This document shows, piece after piece, positions 1,728 through 39,055 of a DNA stretch of 64,000 nucleotides. The stretch comes from a virus (taxonomy: Duplodnaviria; Caudoviricetes). A model generated the notes under the pieces. The model was given only the letters and a program-made list of their open reading frames with translations. It did not search any database and was not told the origin of the DNA. The stretch covers positions 1-64,000 of the IMG/VR virus record IMGVR_UViG_3300031760_000024; one strand, written 5' to 3'. The position numbers were made by a program, and so were the translations under genes. Numbering within the stretch: position 1 is the first letter of the stretch; each line of letters begins with the position of its first letter.

Positions 1728-2717
1728 ATGGTAAAAGAACATGACTTATTATCTGTAGATAAGGATATAAATCTTTATGTTCCAGAACTAACAAAATATC
1801 ACTCTGATGATAATTTATTAGATCATAATACAGATACTTATTTGGATAGACTATATACATACGATGAAGAATGTTGTTGGCAATATTCTATTCGTTTGAA
1901 CAACAAAACAGAAGATACGGAATATATTTATGATAACTTTAATATACTTCCGGAAGACATTAGTGTTGCCGATTTTGATGTTCTACCTATTACATCAAAA
2001 GAAAAGAAAAAAGAAGCCATAGAATTTATAAAGAAATATGAATGGCTTGGTACAATAACACAGTATTCAACGCATTACTTTGGAGCTTATTACAAAGGGA
2101 TCTTAGGTGGGGTAACAATATTTTCTATGCCAAACGCCTTTAGTAAACTTTTAGGGGATAATACGAAAGATTTGGAGAGACTTATTAGTAGAGGCGCATG
2201 CGCTTCATGGACGCCAAAGGGATTAGCTTCTTCGTTTCTTATGGCTTGTATAAAGTGGATGGTACAAAATACTCAATACAGATTATTTACAGCGTATTCC
2301 GATCCGACAGCGAAAGAACTTGGCACAATTTATCAGGCATGTAATTTTTATTATCTTGGACAAAAGTCTGGCACTACAACCAGATATATTAATCCATATA
2401 CAGGAAGAATAGTTTCCGATAGATTCTTTCGTCAAAAAACTGCATATAAAAAATATGCTGAAGAGTTAAAAATTGAATGGGATAAAAGCTGGTCTAATGC
2501 TCATGGTATGAATTGGGATAATGTGCCTGATGAGATAGAAAAGCAACTTCGTGATTTCGGGAAAAAGAAACAGAAGGAATCTAAAAAAATAGAATACCCC
2601 AGTAAGCACAAATACGCATATGTATTGGGCAATAATAAAAAAGAAACAAGGCAATTAAGAAAGATTTTTGAAGAAAGAAATACGATATTACCATATCCAA
2701 AACAAAGAGGCAGATGA
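1728..2717 (+). CDS. Mom-like (GNAT-fold) DNA adenine-modification protein
   Basis: AIEFIKKYEWLG..., ERLISRG, TAYSDPTAKELGTIYQACNFYYLG resemble the Mom-family YxDP...GTIYQAxNxxYxG motif. Confidence 0.7.
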   Translation: MVKEHDLLSVDKDINLYVPELTKYHSDDNLLDHNTDTYLDRLYTYDEECCWQYSIRLNNKTEDTEYIYDNFNILPEDISVADFDVLPITSKEKKKEAIEFIKKYEWLGTITQYSTHYFGAYYKGILGGVTIFSMPNAFSKLLGDNTKDLERLISRGACASWTPKGLASSFLMACIKWMVQNTQYRLFTAYSDPTAKELGTIYQACNFYYLGQKSGTTTRYINPYTGRIVSDRFFRQKTAYKKYAEELKIEWDKSWSNAHGMNWDNVPDEIEKQLRDFGKKKQKESKKIEYPSKHKYAYVLGNNKKETRQLRKIFEERNTILPYPKQRGR

Positions 2718-2757
2718 ACACGGACAATGTTAATAAAAGTAACCAAGGAGGTTAATT

Positions 2758-2979
2758 ATGTTTCTGAAAACAAAGACGATTGACACAAGATGTGAGAACT
2801 GCAAATATTGGCACAAATTAAAGTATGGTTTTAAGACCGGAGACGGCTTTAAAGAATCGTCATGCTGCATAGCTTTGACAAGGCTTGACGAAGATATAGA
2901 TAAGTATGATTCCTTTATAGTTGAAACCGATGCAGATGATATGTGTGAAATGTTTACAAGAAAGGAAAATGTGAAATGA
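2758..2979 (+). CDS. small Cys-rich hypothetical protein
   Basis: RBS AAGGAGG; CxxCxYW...C motif. Confidence 0.6.
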   Translation: MFLKTKTIDTRCENCKYWHKLKYGFKTGDGFKESSCCIALTRLDEDIDKYDSFIVETDADDMCEMFTRKENVK

Positions 2980-3119
2980 TTGATGTAGAGTTTTGGAAGA
3001 AAGTGATTCAGGCGGATCGGGAAAACATCAAGAAATATGGAACGAGTTCTTTTGGGTCGTATGATGGTAGCGATGACGACAATGATGAGGATTATAACGA
3101 TGAAGAATGGGAAGACTGA
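2976..3119 (+). CDS. 47-aa protein with acidic tail (not in ORF track)
   Basis: MIDVEFWKKVIQADRENIKKYGTSSFGSYDGSDDDNDEDYNDEEWED*; ATGA overlap with the upstream stop. Confidence 0.55.
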   Translation: MIDVEFWKKVIQADRENIKKYGTSSFGSYDGSDDDNDEDYNDEEWED

Positions 3120-3172
3120 CAAAATGGTATACAGGAACAAGTCAAATCAGGCTTTGAATTGGAGGTGATAAT

Positions 3173-3361
3173 ATGCCGATGCTTGGTTATGATAATGAAG
3201 ATTGGAAACAATTTATACATTATCTTGGAGAAGCAAGTAAACACATTAACAAAAAAGAGATTAAACGACTTAAGAGAGAAGAAGGAGAAAATTATGCTGA
3301 TGCTCAATGGTGTGATCCATTAGAAGTGTTATTGGATTTAACAAAATCATATTTGAACTAG
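3173..3361 (+). CDS. hypothetical protein
   Basis: RBS GGAGGTG; bounded by palindrome-like sites at 3141 and 3352. Confidence 0.6.
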   Translation: MPMLGYDNEDWKQFIHYLGEASKHINKKEIKRLKREEGENYADAQWCDPLEVLLDLTKSYLN

Positions 3362-3380
3362 TCTTTAATGGGAGGTTTAT

Positions 3381-3686
3381 ATGGAAATAATATCTGAATC
3401 AAATGCAATGTCTACTATTTCGATTATCATGTTCGTATTTGGAATATTATTTGCAGTGATTGGCATTCTTGTTGTTTGTCTTGAAAGAGATTGGAAGGTT
3501 GGATGTTTTTGCTGGATCATAGCTGCGATTATTATCCCATGTTGCATTATTAAAACACCAACCAGATACCGCTTGAGAGTTAACAAGACAACTACTTTTG
3601 GTGAGGTCGAGGCAAAGTATGAAATACTAAAATATGATAAAAAGAATGATATATATATTGTGGTTAAAAAGGAGGAATCCCAATGA
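3381..3686 (+). CDS. two-TM membrane protein (paralog family)
   Basis: RBS GGGAGG; two TM helices; C-terminal YRLRVNK...YEILKY...IYIVVKKE. Confidence 0.7.
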   Translation: MEIISESNAMSTISIIMFVFGILFAVIGILVVCLERDWKVGCFCWIIAAIIIPCCIIKTPTRYRLRVNKTTTFGEVEAKYEILKYDKKNDIYIVVKKEESQ

Positions 3687-4112
3687 AAATTTATACAGAT
3701 GTGAATATAGAACCAACCACTGATGAATTGGTTGATCTGTTTCTAGAAAAAGAAGCTGATGGTAGGGCGAGGTTCTTTTATGAATTGTTTGTGAATCATG
3801 GATGGGATGAGAGTTTACTTGTTGATAATATTTATGACTACATGGACGAAATTGATGTTATGATTAACAAGTTAGAAAGTATGGCAAATCTACTAAGAAT
3901 CAGATATGGGAGGTAAAATTATGAGCAAAATCATACCAATTAAATCTATAAGCTGCGGAAACACGGGGAGGTTTTACATCGTATGTACAGATGGTAGATT
4001 ATTTGAAATGAAATCAATTGCAGATATGACATTTGATTCAGAAATGAATTCGTGTTTTATAACAGATAACGCCGGAATCATCTATAGAATGGGGCGTAAA
4101 GTAGAAAAGTAA
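3683..4112 (+). CDS. two small hypothetical proteins (3683-3916, 3921-4112)
   Basis: Both have GGAGG RBS and are tightly packed. Confidence 0.55.
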
Positions 4113-4128
4113 GGGAGGATATTATTTA

Positions 4129-4329
4129 GTGGCATCACGAGGTAAAGGATCAATATCATTACGCGACGTACAAAAAACATTAAAAGCAAATGGGTATGAA
4201 TTAAATAGGCAAAATAGACACATGATATATAGAAACGAAAAGACAAAAGACGTATTTATATTGCCAAGAAGTTGTCATGACATGTTAATCAGGAGAATGT
4301 ATAAAGAACATAATATATGTCAAAATTAA
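4129..4329 (+). CDS. HicA-like (dsRBD-fold) small protein
   Basis: SLRDVQKTLKANGYELNRQNRHMIY...VFILP resembles HicA xxEVxKxLxxNGWxxxRxxGSHxxY...VP. Confidence 0.5.
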   Translation: MASRGKGSISLRDVQKTLKANGYELNRQNRHMIYRNEKTKDVFILPRSCHDMLIRRMYKEHNICQN

Positions 4330-4342
4330 ATGAGATTTTAAT

Positions 4343-4513
4343 ATGAAGTGTAGATATTTAGCGTGTGATATTTGTGGTCACAATATCGAAAACAGAAGAG
4401 AAATTGGATATAAAATTAAGAAAAAATTATTTTTTCTAGATAATACATGGAAGAATATGGATGTTTGTCAGGATTGTATGCATAAAATAATAGAAAAGAT
4501 TAAGGAGGCGTAA
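4343..4513 (+). CDS. 56-aa zinc-finger-like protein (not in ORF track)
   Basis: MKCRYLACDICGHNIE...DVCQDCMHKIIEKIKEA*; two CxxC pairs. Confidence 0.55.
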   Translation: MKCRYLACDICGHNIENRREIGYKIKKKLFFLDNTWKNMDVCQDCMHKIIEKIKEA

Positions 4514-7248: not shown

Positions 7249-7336
7249 TGAGATGTAGCTCAATCGGTAAGAGCCACGGTCTTATAAACCGTAAGCCCTG
7301 ACAAGGTAAATGTGGGTTCGATTCCCACCATCTCGA
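7249..7336 (+). tRNA. tRNA-Ile(UAU) with long variable arm
   Basis: Acceptor TGAGATG/CATCTCG, D-arm GCTC/GAGC, anticodon ACGGT-CTTATAA-ACCGT, 19-nt V region, T-arm GTGGG-TTCGATT-CCCAC; no CCA. Confidence 0.85.
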
Positions 7337-7343
7337 CACATTT

Positions 7344-7427
7344 GCTACCGTGTCGGAATTGGAATACGAATCAGACTTAAAATCTGAGGCCCAGAAGGGA
7401 TTGAGGGTTCAAGTCCCTCCGGTAGCA
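7344..7427 (+). tRNA. tRNA-Leu(UAA)
   Basis: GCTACCG/CGGTAGC, TCAGA-CTTAAAA-TCTGA, long V arm. Confidence 0.9.
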
Positions 7428-7460
7428 CGAACAGAATCACGAAAGGAGGTATGGTATGAG

Positions 7461-10515: not shown

Positions 10516-10552
10516 AAATACTAACTAGATGAAGCATGTTTTCATCTAGTAC

Positions 10553-10641
10553 GGGAATGTACCCAAGTGGTTGAAGGGATCGGTCTTGAAAACCGACAGA
10601 TCGTTAATAGCGGTGCGAGGGTTCGAATCCCTCCGTTCCCG
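10553..10641 (+). tRNA. tRNA-Ser(UGA)
   Basis: GGGAATG/CGTTCCC, TCGGT-CTTGAAA-ACCGA, long V arm, G73. Confidence 0.9.
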
Positions 10642-10690
10642 TACCCCCCCATTTAAATACCTTGTGGTGTATAGGTTAACCACGAATTTA

Positions 10691-10763
10691 GTGCTTGTAG
10701 CTCAGTTGGTAGAGCATTTGACTTTTAATCAAAGGGTCGGAAGTTCGAGTCTTCTCAAGCACA
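10691..10763 (+). tRNA. tRNA-Lys(UUU)
   Basis: GTGCTTG/CAAGCAC, TTTGA-CTTTTAA-TCAAA. Confidence 0.9.
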
Positions 10764-10766
10764 TTT

Positions 10767-10840
10767 CGCCGCATCGTCTAATCGGTTTAGGACACAGCCC
10801 TTTCACGGCTGAAATACGAGTTCGAGTCTCGTTGCGGTGA
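10767..10840 (+). tRNA. tRNA-Glu(UUC)
   Basis: CGCCGCA/TGCGGTG, CAGCC-CTTTCAC-GGCTG. Confidence 0.9.
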
Positions 10841-10879
10841 TATGTACGGTTTGATGATAAACCATTAAACCATCTATAT

Positions 10880-10953
10880 AGCCCCTTCGCCAAGCGGATT
10901 AAGGCACGAGGTTTTGATCCTCGCATTCACTGGTTCGAATCCAGTAAGGGCTG
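10880..10953 (+). tRNA. tRNA-Gln(UUG)
   Basis: AGCCCCT/AAGGGCT (one mismatch), CGAGG-TTTTGAT-CCTCG. Confidence 0.85.
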
Positions 10954-10961
10954 CTATGAAT

Positions 10962-11036
10962 ACGGGAGTGGGCCAATCGGTAGGCCTCCTCATTTGGGAT
11001 GAGGACATCGTGAGGGTTCAAGTCCCTTCTCCCGTA
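10962..11036 (+). tRNA. tRNA-Pro(UGG)
   Basis: ACGGGAG/CTCCCGT, CCTCA-TTTGGGA-TGAGG. Confidence 0.85.
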
Positions 11037-11086
11037 ATATATAATCGAGGTAAGAAATTTATAAAAAATAGAAAGGAATTTAAGTA

Positions 11087-30135: not shown

Positions 30136-30469
30136 ATGACAATGAGTGAGATACAAGAGGAAATCGCAAAGCTTGAAGAAGAGCGATTTCAACTAGATTT
30201 AAAGGATGAATGGGAGTGGGAGGATGAACGCCGAGCTATCTACATTAGTCGGAAAATCCGACAATACTACACCATCATTAATGGCGGTGGTTACTATGGA
30301 CGGCATTAGTTGGTTAGTGTTGGTTATCATGGTTGTCATCATGATAGGTTCAGTACCACTGATCGAGTGGATATCTTTCAAGTGGTATCAGTATAAGTAC
30401 GGTGATGAAGACGCACGATTTTTGTGGATGAAAAACAAAAAGGACAAAAAGGAGAAGAAACATGAGTGA
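30136..30469 (+). CDS. two small ORFs (30136-30309; 30296-30469 with a TM helix)
   Basis: RBS GAGAGG; translated by hand. Confidence 0.5.
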
Positions 30470-31229
30470 TTATAAGGTAGCCATTGTTGGGCATGGTCAT
30501 GTCGGCGGGATAATGCACGAGTTATTCCCTGACGCAATTATCTATGACGAACCGAAAGGTATAGGAACGAGAGAAGAAGTGAATGAATGCGACTTTACAT
30601 TCGTATGTGTACCAACACCAAAGGCGGAAGATGGACACTGTGATACGAGTATTGTGGATGATGTATTGGATTGGATAAAGAGTGATGTGGTCATAATTCG
30701 CTCTACAGTACCAGTTGGATATACATTTTACAAACAATCCAAAGTACAGCCTCATCTTGTATTCCAGCCGGAGTACTACGGTGAAACAAAGAACCATCCA
30801 TTTGCCGATCCACATAACCGCAATTGGATAACACTTGGTGGTTTTCCAACTGGAACAAGTCGAGTAGCGAATCTGTATAAGACCGTATTCACTTCTGATG
30901 TATTCATTTACGAAATCACATCGGATGAAGCAGAAATGGCGAAGTATATGGAGAATTCCTTCTTCTCAACGAAAGTTACGTTCTGTAATCAGTTCTACGA
31001 TCTGTGTAAAAGATTTGGTATTAACTACGACAGAGTTCGTGAGGCTTGGTTATTAGACCCACGAATTGGGCGTTCCCATACATTTGTATACCCTGATAAC
31101 CGTGGCTACGGTGGATCATGTCTGCCAAAGGACACGGCTGCTATCATCTATCAGGGCGATGAAATGGGCGTGGATATGAAACTGTTGAAATCAGTAGAGG
31201 AAATAAACGGAGGATATCATAATGATTGA
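30462..31229 (+). CDS. UDP-glucose/GDP-mannose dehydrogenase family protein (no C-terminal domain)
   Basis: GHGHVG, CVPTP, RSTVPVG, PEY, EMAKY, GYGGSCLPKD. Confidence 0.88.
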   Translation: MSDYKVAIVGHGHVGGIMHELFPDAIIYDEPKGIGTREEVNECDFTFVCVPTPKAEDGHCDTSIVDDVLDWIKSDVVIIRSTVPVGYTFYKQSKVQPHLVFQPEYYGETKNHPFADPHNRNWITLGGFPTGTSRVANLYKTVFTSDVFIYEITSDEAEMAKYMENSFFSTKVTFCNQFYDLCKRFGINYDRVREAWLLDPRIGRSHTFVYPDNRGYGGSCLPKDTAAIIYQGDEMGVDMKLLKSVEEINGGYHND

Positions 31230-32100
31230 TAAGCGTATTTTTTACTGTTGGTTTGGTGGCGGAGAAATGTCCGACCTTAATAAGAAGTGTATGGAGTCAT
31301 GGAAGAAGTGGTGTCCTGACTACGAGATCGTAGAGATCAATGAATCCAACTTTGACTATCACATCACACCGTATGCAGAAGAAGCGTACGAGCATGGTAA
31401 CTGGTCATATGTCAGCAATGCTGCAAGACTTGAGTTTCTGAAACATAATAGTGGCATTTACCTTGACACTGATATCCAGTTGGTAAAGTCGCTTGATAGC
31501 TTGCTTGAGTATGACGATGGTTTCATTACAGAGTTTGAGTCAGGTCAGCCTGACTCTGGTATTCTTGGATGTTCAAGATGGCCGAAGTTTTACGATGAAG
31601 TATACAACCGTCTCGTGCCCGGAACAGTACTGCACAAGGAGTTTATTCAAGTAATGTATAGGGATTACAACATTCATGGTGAGAAAATCCTTAAGAACGA
31701 CGATGGATTTGTTGTACTTGGCGAAGAGTTTATACCTACTGTACGTACAGGATTGTTTACACCGAACACTATTGCCATCCATCACTTCGAGAACACATGG
31801 GTAAAACAGTGGCGTAATATTACTGATGGTTTCTACCCGTTCCCTCGGATCAAGGCTTATCTCGGTAACAAAGTGCTGCATGAGGATAAAGACCCAGAGG
31901 TTATCTTTATTTCCAAGAACCTGAAAAAGAAGTGGAGTGATGGTGACATGCTTGGTAAAATTAACTACTTTTTTAACCCGAAGGTTGTGCAGTTATCATG
32001 TAAAGATTTCGATGCACAGCGAATCGGATATGACAAGACGAAAGAAAAGCGCATGACTATCACACCGGGCGGTTTAATGGTTTGGTGGATTGCGGATTAG
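31222..32100 (+). CDS. glycosyltransferase (GT32/Och1-like, DxD)
   Basis: IFYCWFGG, SWKKWCPDYEI, SNAARL...GIYLDTD. Confidence 0.85.
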   Translation: MIDKRIFYCWFGGGEMSDLNKKCMESWKKWCPDYEIVEINESNFDYHITPYAEEAYEHGNWSYVSNAARLEFLKHNSGIYLDTDIQLVKSLDSLLEYDDGFITEFESGQPDSGILGCSRWPKFYDEVYNRLVPGTVLHKEFIQVMYRDYNIHGEKILKNDDGFVVLGEEFIPTVRTGLFTPNTIAIHHFENTWVKQWRNITDGFYPFPRIKAYLGNKVLHEDKDPEVIFISKNLKKKWSDGDMLGKINYFFNPKVVQLSCKDFDAQRIGYDKTKEKRMTITPGGLMVWWIAD

Positions 32101-32634: not shown

Positions 32635-32682
32635 TACGCCTAAAATAATTGGCGTAAGATTATAGAAAGGAGTCGGATATGG

Positions 32683-32862
32683 ATGACCAATTACCTTAAA
32701 CCAAAGGACATCCAATCCATATTAGGCTTTAATATGAAGAAAATATACTCAATTATCAACAGACCTGACTTTCCAAAAACAAAAGTCGGAAGACAGTATA
32801 TCATTCCAGAGGATAAATTCTATGCCTATATGGAGACACGATGTTATAAAATTTTGTCTTGA
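32683..32862 (+). CDS. excisionase / HTH_17 recombination directionality factor (not in ORF track)
   Basis: MTNYLKPKDIQSILGFNMKKIYSIINRPDFPKTKVGRQYIIPEDKF. Confidence 0.75.
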   Translation: MTNYLKPKDIQSILGFNMKKIYSIINRPDFPKTKVGRQYIIPEDKFYAYMETRCYKILS

Positions 32863-32887
32863 CAGGGTTCATATGATTTGATAATAT
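32859..32887 (+). promoter_or_regulatory. sigma-A promoter pointing into the tRNA-Trp half
   Basis: TTGACA-17-TAATAT with TG extension. Confidence 0.65.
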
Positions 32888-33002
32888 ACCCTTTGTGGTT
32901 ACGGTAACAGACACCAAACAAATCTAAATCGGCTTAACCAATGGGCGTAAGCCTGACACAAATAGGCGTAACTACTTGCAAGCCCTTATAAAATAAGGGC
33001 AT

Positions 33003-33039
33003 AGGGGATTGGTCAAATGGTATGATAGGGGTCTCCAAA
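33003..33039 (+). other. attP identity block: 5' half of tRNA-Trp(CCA), tRNA positions 1-38
   Basis: AGGGGAT-TG-GTCA-AATGGTA-TGAT-A-GGGGT-CTCCAAA, after which the tRNA fold stops (no 3' anticodon stem, T-arm or acceptor). Confidence 0.8.
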
Positions 33040-33075
33040 TTAAACTCCAAGGATTTGTAATTAATATAAAAATAC

Positions 33076-33116
33076 ATCCGTAAGCACTTTATTTACAAAG
33101 GCTTGCGGATTTTTTT
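33076..33116 (+). terminator. intrinsic terminator between the att core and int
   Basis: ATCCGTAAGC / GCTTGCGGAT stem plus T-tract. Confidence 0.7.
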
Positions 33117-33220
33117 GTTTAGTATTGTTTAGGCGTAACTAACGGTATTTAGAGGTATCTAACGGTATCTATTCCAGCGTAATTAGGCGTAAATTAGTCG
33201 CACGAATAGGCGTAAGCCTG

Positions 33221-33250
33221 TTGACAACCGAATCTTGGCTGTGATATATT
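33221..33250 (+). promoter_or_regulatory. integrase promoter
   Basis: TTGACA-18-TATATT with TG extension, abutting the last arm repeat. Confidence 0.55.
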
Positions 33251-33273
33251 CCAACCAAGAGGAGGTGATTACT

Positions 33274-34434
33274 ATGAAGAAGCTTGCTAAATTACCAAGA
33301 GGAGAGGGTAGCTTTAATTACAGAGCAAACGGTTCTGTAGAATTCAAAAAATACGTCCATGTAGATAATGGCACAGTACGTCTTGTTGTGTATGGTAAAA
33401 CAGAACAGGAATGTATGGAGAAGATGCGTCAGAAGGAAGCGAAGGTTAAAGAGAAAAGTCATTTCGTTTCCACAGAGTTATTAGGAGAAGCTTTAATTGA
33501 GTGGGTAAACAAAGTTAAAAAGAATACACTTAAGAAACAATCTTATGACAGACTGATTGGAACAGCTAAACAGATCGGCAAAGCGGATATTGGTCATCAT
33601 TTTTACACTGATATTGGCATTGTAGAGCTTCAGGATTACATTCAAAGCCTTATTGACAAAAGATACTCATGGTCAACCATTAAGAAATCCTATGATATTT
33701 TAAGAGCGTTCTACCGTTATGCTTCAGCAAGAGATCAGTTTCGTGATCCGATGTTGTTGGTTGTTATGCCAAGACGAACCAATGTAAAGGTTGAAGCCAA
33801 GGAGATTCAATGGTTCGAGGAAGATGATATCAAGAAATTCACGGATGCATGTGAAGCAAGGTGGAATACAGGACGTCTCAAAAACAAATACTCATATGCA
33901 CTTGCGGCGAATATATATCTCGGTTTAAGAGGCGGAGAGTTGCTTGCTTTACAGTGGCAGGATATAGATTTTGATGCTGGAACTGTGTATATCTCTAAAA
34001 CACTTATTGAGTATAGAAAAGATGGCAAGACACACTTTGAGATTCAGGAATCTACGAAAAGAGACAAGAACAGATATGTACCAATGAATTCGAAAGCCAA
34101 AGATTTCTTGTTAAAACATAAAAAAGAATGCAAATTTACAGAACCTACAGACTATGTGGTATGTACAACTAACAGGAAAACGACAACACTCAAGAACATT
34201 TCTGATATGATCCGCAACATAGAAGAAGAGGCTGGTACAAAAGTAAGAGCATATAACTCACATATTCTCCGTCATACTTGTGCATCACTATATTTCAAGA
34301 AGGGTGTCCCCATCGAAACCATCTGCGCAATCCTAGGTAATACCAGAGAAGTATGCGAGAAAACCTATATTCATTTCGCAGAAGAACAACTCAAGAATGC
34401 TGCATCAAGGATTATTCCTGCAATAGAATTGTAA
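33274..34434 (+). CDS. int: tyrosine integrase
   Basis: GLRGGELLAL, HILRHT, LGN, TYIH; RBS AGGAGGTG. Confidence 0.93.
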   Translation: MKKLAKLPRGEGSFNYRANGSVEFKKYVHVDNGTVRLVVYGKTEQECMEKMRQKEAKVKEKSHFVSTELLGEALIEWVNKVKKNTLKKQSYDRLIGTAKQIGKADIGHHFYTDIGIVELQDYIQSLIDKRYSWSTIKKSYDILRAFYRYASARDQFRDPMLLVVMPRRTNVKVEAKEIQWFEEDDIKKFTDACEARWNTGRLKNKYSYALAANIYLGLRGGELLALQWQDIDFDAGTVYISKTLIEYRKDGKTHFEIQESTKRDKNRYVPMNSKAKDFLLKHKKECKFTEPTDYVVCTTNRKTTTLKNISDMIRNIEEEAGTKVRAYNSHILRHTCASLYFKKGVPIETICAILGNTREVCEKTYIHFAEEQLKNAASRIIPAIEL

Positions 34435-36605: not shown

Positions 36606-38114
36606 TTACGATATTGTCAGGGGATTACGATCAATCACAACTCTAATAAGGCCATCTATATTTGTTATATGAGACTCGTCTTCTGAATTACACCATACTC
36701 CAACAGCCAATGGTGCACCATAATAGCTATTTACACCAACGTGCAAATGAGTACCTTTTGTATATTGCTGAGGTGTTTTATCGGTAACCGCAAATTCAAG
36801 TGTGTGTCCATATCCCCAACTACCACTACCATAGGCTGATCGTCCAAAATATGATTCATACACACAATAGTCAACGTTATCATACTTATAAGTTATATAG
36901 TATGTGACCATAATACTCTGGTTATAATCAAGATCGCCACCTATATCAACAGACCCTAAACCAGTTACATAAATCGTTTTTTCATATGTATCACCTAACG
37001 CAGACTTGATCAAATCCAAAATCGGTTGCTCACCCTGCGTGATATACTCCACCTCCATATCCCCCGTACTGCTCTCTATGTGGTTGTAGCCGGAGAGAGA
37101 TTTGATAGGTAGGTTGGTGGGGGTGACGGATGAGGTTGTGGGGGTGGCGAGTTCGTAAGCAAGCATTACACCATCAACCGCATTCGCGAAATCTGTAGCC
37201 TCTGTAAATCGGGTGTCTTTGAAATAGATTTCTCTGTAATTGTCTCTTGACTTATAGTAAGCCATGAATGAACAATCGGGCTTAGTAACGAGATCGGGAG
37301 TACCTGTCATCGTTGTTCCGACATAATTATATGCGGAGCTTAACATGATAACATTGGAGACAAATTTATAATCCGGCAAAGTCGCATAGAATGTTCCTGT
37401 GATTGTACTTGACTTATTCCATGTCAAATCTCCCATATCAATGACGGTCATATCACTCGTCACTTCCCCCTTCACCACATCCTCACTCCCTCTATATATA
37501 GCAGAGGGGTAGGTGGTGGTGTGGGTGGTTCTTACATAAGGCTCGTAGTCATGTGGTGTTTCACCTTTTTCTACCATTACGTTATCAATGTTTTCTGTTC
37601 TAAAATCGAACCTTAAATATTTTGCATTTGCAGGGCTTTCTCGTGTTGTAAAACTTGAATTTCCACTAATATATGTTTTACTGCTGTCATAAAAAGCAAC
37701 GGCACAAGTAGATGTCTGTGGAATCGTTAGAGTGTATTTTGTTAATGGTTCAATTTCAATATAATCTGACAAACTCCATGACGTTGTTAAATAAGGATCT
37801 CCTGTATTCGGATTCAATGCTTTGCCTGTTAAAATGTCTGGATCATTTTTATCAAACAGATTCTTCCCCCTCACCTCAATCTCCCCCTCCGTATATGCCA
37901 CGATAGGACGGATATTATCGGGTGAGGGTGTACCCGTGCCGCTCTGATATCCCATGATCTGTGTCACGCACTTCACAAGCGGCGCATCTGCTCCGTCTGT
38001 AAATTCTAAAACTCTAGAACCAGTTTCGCTTGTTGCTGTTCTTGTTGGGTCTGCTTGTATGTCATATATTTCATCATCAGGCATGAGCTTAATTTGTTTT
38101 ATTGTTTCATTCAT
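36606..38114 (-). CDS. tail fibre / receptor-binding-like protein
   Basis: GTGTPSPDNIRPI, VRGKNLFD, carbohydrate-binding-like segment; tail context. Confidence 0.6.
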   Translation of the reverse strand: MNETIKQIKLMPDDEIYDIQADPTRTATSETGSRVLEFTDGADAPLVKCVTQIMGYQSGTGTPSPDNIRPIVAYTEGEIEVRGKNLFDKNDPDILTGKALNPNTGDPYLTTSWSLSDYIEIEPLTKYTLTIPQTSTCAVAFYDSSKTYISGNSSFTTRESPANAKYLRFDFRTENIDNVMVEKGETPHDYEPYVRTTHTTTYPSAIYRGSEDVVKGEVTSDMTVIDMGDLTWNKSSTITGTFYATLPDYKFVSNVIMLSSAYNYVGTTMTGTPDLVTKPDCSFMAYYKSRDNYREIYFKDTRFTEATDFANAVDGVMLAYELATPTTSSVTPTNLPIKSLSGYNHIESSTGDMEVEYITQGEQPILDLIKSALGDTYEKTIYVTGLGSVDIGGDLDYNQSIMVTYYITYKYDNVDYCVYESYFGRSAYGSGSWGYGHTLEFAVTDKTPQQYTKGTHLHVGVNSYYGAPLAVGVWCNSEDESHITNIDGLIRVVIDRNPLTIS

Positions 38115-39055
38115 GAATCTACCTCCTTTTCATAATTAAAATATGGATACTCGGAGTTATCAGGTGGATACCATTCAGGATGAGTCTGCGGAGAAATTAA
38201 AAATTCATCGGACATAAGCCGATGAATCGTTAGTTTATCACGCTCCTTAAATGGGATTCTTTTCATTGGTATATTATGCTCCCAAGCCCATTTATTCTTA
38301 AATAGATCATGACTATGTGTTTTAAGATAATGATCCTCTGTATCCCATCCAACACCTCGATAATCAAAATGTTGCTTTCCATCGAATTCAATAATACAAG
38401 GATCATCATGAATATAAAAATCAAAAAAGCCGTAGTATCCAGTATCAGGAAACTTACAGCTTTCAAAGGTTTTATTATTAGTATATGTAATATTATTTTC
38501 TTTTAATAATCTCTTAATATGGATTTCGCCAATAGATACACCCATACATCCGCATGATCGAGTATGTTCGTTGCGGAGATTCCCACCGCTAACTTCTATC
38601 ATACTACCACAACTACATTCACATAAAAACATGTGTTTATTATTTATGTATTTTGTGTGTTGGATAACTGTTAATTCACCGAAAGTTTTACCAATCATTG
38701 TATTTACATAATGATTTTTACAAGCAATAGATTTACTATTTCTTAAGACAGAAGATGTATATTTGCATTCTTCTCCGCAACTACATTTACATAACCATAT
38801 GGATCTACGCTTACTATCATTTCCAATCTTTTTTAGTATAGTTAATTCTCCAAGCTTTTGCCCTGTTAAATCAAAACCGCCGTGTTTACCGCAACTTTTT
38901 GTATGACCGTTTTTTAAATCACGCCCAATAACAACCACATGATTCCCACAATCACACACACATTCCCAACATGCGCGTTTAAGATTATTTTCAACTCTAC
39001 GCAAGACAACCAATTTCCCGAACCGCTGTCCTGTTAAATCTATCAGCTTGCTCAT
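38111..39055 (-). CDS. free-standing putative homing endonuclease (3x CxC..SCG repeats + PD-(D/E)XK-like C-terminus)
   Basis: DLTGQRFGKL...WECVCDCG...SCG three times; FDFY...IEFDGKQH. Confidence 0.75.
   Translation of the reverse strand: MSKLIDLTGQRFGKLVVLRRVENNLKRACWECVCDCGNHVVVIGRDLKNGHTKSCGKHGGFDLTGQKLGELTILKKIGNDSKRRSIWLCKCSCGEECKYTSSVLRNSKSIACKNHYVNTMIGKTFGELTVIQHTKYINNKHMFLCECSCGSMIEVSGGNLRNEHTRSCGCMGVSIGEIHIKRLLKENNITYTNNKTFESCKFPDTGYYGFFDFYIHDDPCIIEFDGKQHFDYRGVGWDTEDHYLKTHSHDLFKNKWAWEHNIPMKRIPFKERDKLTIHRLMSDEFLISPQTHPEWYPPDNSEYPYFNYEKEVDS

Follow-up and report, generated by a model that had tools for sequence, protein, structure and literature searches.

The analysed window is a stretch of 64,000 nucleotides taken from the start of an 86.8-kb IMG/VR virus record with an estimated completeness of 58%. 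The phage belongs to the gut metagenomes of cattle and other ruminants and has no near match in the phage GenBank collection. Up to 32.9 kb the genes run rightward and include seven phage tRNAs in two clusters, a UDP-sugar dehydrogenase-like gene, a glycosyltransferase, a dUTPase and an HTH_17 gene, and from 34.5 kb onward endolysin and structural genes are read leftward. The dUTPase and the excisionase-like HTH_17 gene (xis) form the left flank, and the tyrosine integrase (int) and endolysin the right flank, of a host-identical tRNA-Trp half located in the 411-bp gap between xis and int. This xis-attP-int-endolysin layout is shared with contigs of 149-152 kb, and the arrangement of the site itself is retained in relatives whose integrases are 68-98% identical. 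The gap and its borders display the following features:

32651..32971, + strand: P-arm copies of GGCGTAA (32651-32657, 32944-32950 and 32965-32971), from the repeat count and in register in relatives
32683..32862, + strand: 59-aa HTH_17 protein, excisionase-like, candidate Xis/RDF (PF12728, E = 6.4e-7, 30 bits against a cut-off of 27)
32859..32887, + strand: promoter-like TTGACA-17-TAATAT with an extended -10 TG (10/12 matches)
32888..32902, + strand: conserved block ACCnnTTGTGGTTAC (also given as ACCnnTTGTGGTT) at the predicted transcript start (alignments A2 and A3)
32982..33000, + strand: 8-bp hairpin or palindrome GCCCTTAT-AAA-ATAAGGGC without a U-run (from folding; in three of four lineages)
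33003..33039, + strand: attP core, tRNA-Trp(CCA) positions 1-38 (exact host identity)
33040..33075, + strand: non-tRNA spacer replacing the tRNA 3' part (unconserved among relatives in the alignments)
33076..33117, + strand: intrinsic terminator, a 14-bp bulged hairpin followed by T7 (-17.5 kcal/mol, z = -5.1)
33128..33215, + strand: P'-arm copies of GGCGTAA (33132-33138, 33186-33192 and 33209-33215), from the repeat count and alignment
33128-33167, + strand: 20-nt tandem repeat (..CTAACGGTA) within the P' arm
33221..33250, + strand: promoter of int, TTGACA-18-TATATT with TG (11/12 matches, kept in relatives)
33274..34434, + strand: tyrosine integrase of 386 aa (PF00589, E = 3e-23; phrog_1, E = 9e-52)

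The catalytic residues of the integrase, R219, H330, R333 and Y365, occupy invariant columns of alignment A1. The HTH_17 protein also gives a weak match to phrog_66 (excisionase), and its gene, directly upstream of attP here, similarly adjoins attP in the related contigs L163, L265, L170 and L173. The heptamer GGCGTAA occurs 14 times in the 64 kb against 3.7 copies expected, and six of these copies fall within 565 bp, all on the + strand and three on each side of the tRNA half, the last of them abutting the -35 element of the int promoter. These copies are candidate arm-type sites of the integrase, and the 20-nt tandem repeat may bind an accessory protein. An alignment of the attP regions of the window, L265, L164 and L268, whose integrases are 68-82% identical, reveals that the promoter, the arm positions, the tRNA half, the terminator, the P' repeats and the int promoter are kept while the spacer following CTCCAAA has diverged. 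In L268, the most distant of the four (68% integrase identity), TTGTGTAGTA takes the place of GGCGTAA at the same positions (L268:3095-3506 against 32845-33280 of the window). The N-terminal 70 residues of the L268 integrase are 57% identical to those of the window integrase, against 71% for the remainder. Arm sites and arm-binding domain thus appear to co-vary.

Several other features of the phage were recorded. The tRNAs number eight when one at G000 72558-72631 is added to those at 7249-7428 and 10552-11037 of the window. They are Ile-TAT, Leu-TAA, Ser-TGA, Lys-TTT, Glu-TTC, Gln-TTG, Pro-TGG and Thr-TGT, all reading A/T-ending codons, and the set holds no tRNA-Trp of the phage's own. At 30462-32100 of the window a truncated UDP-glucose dehydrogenase-like gene and a DXD glycosyltransferase gene are embedded in a nucleotide-metabolism operon, and both lie beside dUTPase in all relatives. 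An HNH homing endonuclease gene (38111-39055, - strand; phrog_374, E = 1e-42) is located amid the structural genes. In the lineage with integrases 75-77% identical (L164:3586-5784 and L267:1-3963) the attP-int cassette occupies another gene context, with tail-side genes upstream of the cassette; downstream of it, in convergent orientation, lie xis and the genes for the dehydrogenase, the glycosyltransferase and the dUTPase. In L267, int and xis are separated by a resolvase and an IS605-type OrfB/TnpB element.

The tRNA-Trp half and its flanking signals

The sequence at 33003-33039 (AGGGGAT-TG-GTCA-AATGGTA-TGAT-A-GGGGT-CTCCAAA) comprises the acceptor 5' strand, the D arm, the anticodon 5' stem and the anticodon loop CTCCAAA. 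This 37-mer is present once in the window, with a chance expectation of 0, and is matched over 37/37 nt in at least 120 species-genome stretches, nearly all from Lachnospiraceae (genera including Blautia, Coprococcus, Mediterraneibacter, Roseburia and Pseudobutyrivibrio), as well as in 28 viral contigs. Among the matches listed, a complete tRNA-Trp follows the 37-mer in 147/147 other loci. The host loci continue with ACCTTTGGTGGGAGTTCGATTCTCTCATCCCCTG, and the window with the unrelated TTAAACTCC. Identity with the host stops at the end of the anticodon loop, positions 39-72 being absent altogether, and DNA to the left of tRNA position 1 has no match to the listed host loci. As expected for only half a tRNA, neither ARAGORN nor Rfam calls a tRNA at 33003-33039. 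L163, L164, L166 and L261 carry the half unchanged; L265, L268 and L270 have C at position 6. The anticodon-arm pattern of tRNA-Trp is single-copy in 4/5 host genomes.

The original prediction, made on this DNA from its letters, had proposed a tRNA-Trp(CCA) half that starts at position 1, stops where the anticodon loop ends and then gives way to unrelated sequence, which is what these positions contain; its assignment of the half to a Lachnospiraceae-type tRNA is confirmed by comparison of the 37-mer with bacterial tRNAs, nearly all the exact host matches lying in that family. It had also designated the site an attP, and this agrees with the phage genes and arm-type repeats on both sides and with the adjacent int. 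The region 32651-33250 is an attP in its free-phage form and not a prophage end, because phage genes occupy both flanks and the same junction recurs in the 149-152 kb contigs from other samples. As a separate observation, 28 IMG/VR contigs (L122-L149) hold an intact tRNA-Trp, which with few exceptions occupies one end of the contig and points inward, and their fetched flanks contain no homologue of the window integrase; other, unrelated Lachnospiraceae prophages seem to use tRNA-Trp too.

Upstream of the half, the predicted transcript start lies near 32894, ~108 nt ahead of tRNA position 1. The promoter is invariant in four attP lineages (integrases 68-82% identical), always 115-116 nt before the half, and this invariance holds although the upstream genes differ between lineages. 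Promoter-like matches also precede some of the 3'-type fragments described below, and the case for the promoter therefore rests on its invariance and fixed spacing and not on the consensus match. The conserved block at 32888-32902 is a candidate operator or 5' stem-loop. The leader closes with the 8-bp hairpin, separated from tRNA position 1 by 2 nt. To the right of the anticodon loop, where the C' core site is expected, the sequence is unconserved among relatives. The terminator hairpin (33076-33110) is not equalled in folding by any of 200 shuffles, and its stems are kept with altered sequence in L268. A simple consensus terminator scan does not list the terminator at 33076-33117, probably because of the internal bulge and the long loop. 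The terminator is found at the same place in 3'-type relatives, after the tRNA 3' end, and is not peculiar to the 5' type. Both signals had been proposed beforehand, a TTGACA-17-TAATAT promoter upstream of the half and a terminator before int that would stop host read-through into int, and both are present; the attL junctions of L166 and L266, in which tRNA positions 1-37 are followed by the terminator and then int, place the latter where such a role demands.

The leader hairpin and the terminator also resemble each other, 29 nt at 32978-33006 being 76% complementary to 33078-33106. The likeness is closer in L163 and L164, the latter with an identical stretch of 15 nt, CCGCATAAATAAAGG, and could represent a duplication scar or an alternative pairing.

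Lysogen junctions and the integrase family

Two attL junctions are present in relatives, L166 and L266, and both run from host flank through tRNA-Trp 1-37 into phage terminator and int. The L166 junction, from the sample of ENA ERZ28575842, has an int 53% identical to that of the window and lies at the start of a 370-kb scaffold without Ns. Its nt 1-154 are 94.8% identical to the DNA upstream of an intact tRNA-Trp in a Lachnospiraceae genome (L096/G001) and include a 23S rRNA 3' end and a TTGACG-17-TATAAT promoter, past which come tRNA-Trp 1-37, non-tRNA sequence, the terminator, arm repeats and int. The second junction, L266, belongs to the window's own integrase clade (82% identity) and presents a host tRNA-Arg(ACG), a 37-nt spacer, tRNA-Trp 1-37 with A at position 6, and the P' arm. 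The order tRNA-Arg then tRNA-Trp is also found in the rumen MAG L042. The P' arm of L266 is 299/300 identical to that of attP L265, and the single difference is tRNA position 6, which is A in attL as in hosts and C in the attP of L265 and, from another sample, of L270. Exchange therefore took place 3' of position 6. Since L266, from SRR11784282, was assembled at k=31 and has one 31-mer in common with host tRNA genes, a chimera is conceivable, though unlikely.

The C6 variant bears on the fit of the rebuilt tRNA in this sublineage. In the L266 attL and in most host genes A6 is paired with T67, and a tRNA rebuilt at attR from the C6 attP of L265/L270 would contain a C6-U67 mismatch unless the usual host has G67. 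The 3'-type attPs L173 and L176, with the sequence AGCCCCTG, point to such a G67.

The opposite junction was sought more widely. An attR would show a P arm running into a complete tRNA; none turned up among the at least 120 genome loci or the 28 viral loci, nor in the scan of metagenome contigs or in the gene contexts of matching proteins. The exact junction patterns gave 0 matches in viral contigs, and the promoter-block pattern retrieved only another attP (L174) in metagenome contigs and nothing in viral contigs. Neither P-arm DNA nor an integrase homologue of the window lies beside the 37-mer in any of the 147 other listed loci. The integrase was not detected in 413 Lachnospiraceae species genomes (401 plus 12 of the genus of G001) or in six single genomes, and the truncated tRNA half pattern has no match in the 401 Lachnospiraceae genomes. 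The exact-protein contexts of xis and other P-side neighbours comprise attP forms or broken contigs only, and no lysogen of the exact window phage was seen in the collections searched. Logan contigs (k=31) of four cattle-gut runs all break within the shared 37-mer, where attP plus attB and attL plus attR are indistinguishable. Thus inspection of prophage junctions, which the original prediction had proposed, located attL of two relatives exactly at the half and found no attR.

The integrase has 268 homologues. All those with readable context, down to 33% identity, adjoin a tRNA-Trp fragment on the same strand. In most of them the fragment is of the 3' type, with tRNA-Trp 27/28-71 followed by the terminator (L150/L175, L151/L177, L176, L179, L170-L172 and L173), and L170 and L173 share the dUTPase-xis-attP-int synteny of the window. 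The lysogen junctions of 3'-type relatives hold an intact tRNA beside int, as in L168/L169, where it lies behind a 23S end, and in L181-L187. L168 (positions 1800-4351), a 3'-type relative with the integrase P0098, also carries a TubZ-like tubulin gene just past int. In both types the fragment lies upstream of int on the same strand. The description of the site as a reversed-orientation integration is therefore not upheld, the orientation of fragment to int being that of the 3'-type sisters and only the duplicated half differing. The two types have in common only tRNA positions 28-38, so that, if the family uses one site, crossover is placed in or beside the anticodon loop.

The integrase tree groups the window with its 5'-type relatives in a clade supported at 100/99, whose sister is a 3'-type clade. 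In contrast, the 5'-type integrase P0070 (L166) pairs with the 3'-type P0098 at 99/99, and does so in both protein domains (64% and 70% identity). A single 5' clade is rejected by the AU test (p = 1e-4), for which the group was defined after inspection of an initial tree, with rows P0002 and P0004 taken as 5'-type by assumption. Together, the tree and the AU test indicate from the protein alignments that polarity changed independently at least twice in this family.

Integration model, rival readings and known systems

In the proposed mechanism the integrase would bind the GGCGTAA repeats on both sides of the half and carry out strand exchange with the host gene somewhere in the 37 bp common to both, the anticodon loop or its immediate border being the likeliest place, since this loop is the only stretch shared with the sister attPs carrying 27/28-71. 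At attL the host promoter and a truncated host 5' half would lead directly into the phage terminator and int, as seen in the two relatives. At attR, ~150 kb away, the phage P arm with its promoter, ~108-nt leader and 5' half would be followed by the host 3' half, and the rebuilt tRNA-Trp would depend on the phage promoter and on processing of the leader by RNase P. Expression of tRNA-Trp in the lysogen would thereby come under prophage control, as originally suggested. Because the gene is apparently single-copy in 4/5 host genomes, its restoration would be needed for viability. The 5'-type attP would represent a derived variant of the usual 3' type that arose at least twice with orientation and crossover site unchanged.

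We consider it probable, at roughly 0.8, that 32651-33250 is the attP of a ~150 kb temperate phage of rumen or gut Lachnospiraceae, with the 5' half of host tRNA-Trp as its core, integrating by these steps and derived from a 3'-type attP on at least two occasions. A bolder proposal is tentative, its odds falling somewhat short of even: that attP switched from the 3' to the 5' part at least twice with the same crossover and orientation, each switch taking the usually single tRNA-Trp away from its own promoter, often that of an rRNA or tRNA operon, and placing it behind a prophage promoter that is conserved and has a leader containing integrase-binding sites.

The promoter, half and terminator might instead constitute a phage small RNA unit of ~220 nt, for example a tRNA-Trp mimic or decoy acting on a host factor, with the likeness to an att site secondary or an extra role. 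The half is indeed bracketed by a strong promoter and a start block, both conserved, and by a strong terminator, and the predicted transcript folds better than shuffles (z = -3.6). However, the end of the half coincides exactly with the attL junctions, arm repeats are located inside the supposed leader, the spacer between half and terminator is unconserved, the predicted transcript region has no Rfam match, and a 5'-type attP needs a promoter-half-terminator unit in any case; this explanation is accordingly improbable.

Less probable again is that the half tRNA is a functionless scar, such as one left by an old imprecise excision, with the true attP core elsewhere. The missing attR and the unseen lysogen of the exact phage would fit such an origin, but the 37 nt are invariant bar position 6 beside a spacer that has diverged completely, the half lies at the centre of the arm repeats and two attL junctions occur at it, and the scar is disfavoured on these grounds. 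Slightly lower still stands the possibility that the window is a prophage end (attL) in a bacterial chromosome, as the classification of the IMG/VR record as linear and 58% complete might suggest. To the left, however, lie phage nucleotide-metabolism genes, xis and seven phage tRNAs, with no match of this flank to host loci, and to the right int, endolysin and tail genes; these phage genes on both flanks, with the recurrence of the same junction in several 149-152 kb contigs, speak against a prophage end.

Read as the attP of a Lachnospiraceae phage, the locus assigns a host family and an exact integration site to uncultured ~150 kb rumen and gut phages, and provides a clean and well-replicated case of the rare 5'-polarity tRNA attachment site. 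It indicates that polarity can flip between closely related integrases on one tRNA. The 5'/3' sister pairs could serve to test the constraints on att-site polarity and why the 3' part is normally preferred, and could reveal the effects on a lysogen of exchanging the promoter of a single-copy essential tRNA; if true, the switch would let the prophage act on an essential host tRNA. Software for prophage detection that looks for an intact tRNA beside int will place the ends of these prophages wrongly.

Tyrosine integrases reportedly follow, in the scheme attributed to Williams (2002), a standard type of integration into the anticodon loop of tRNA genes. The present site displays a tyrosine integrase with arm repeats, a predicted anticodon-arm crossover, int beside attP and a terminator after the tRNA part, all as in that type. 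The standard attP, however, carries the 3' portion and leaves the intact gene beside int, the state of L168/L169, L170 and L173, whereas the window attP carries the 5' portion and the intact gene would sit at the far end of the prophage. Zhao and Williams (2002) are said to have described integrative elements whose recombination target is the 5'-distal portion of a tRNA gene. Like that type, the attP of the window duplicates the tRNA 5' part, the element must bring a promoter, and the fragment displaced in the lysogen is the 5' part. Unlike those elements, it belongs to a ~150 kb Lachnospiraceae phage and targets tRNA-Trp, and its fragment-to-int orientation is that of its 3'-type sisters, both polarities occurring within one integrase family. 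A passage of PMC6563490, citing Zhao & Williams 2002 and others, gives recombination with the 5'-distal tRNA part as documented and "considerably less frequent" than with the 3' part. The site in the window is thus of a rare, already known type, the 5'-half attachment site. Less ordinary are the conserved promoter module and the fact that a single integrase family, acting on one tRNA in one orientation, includes both polarities.
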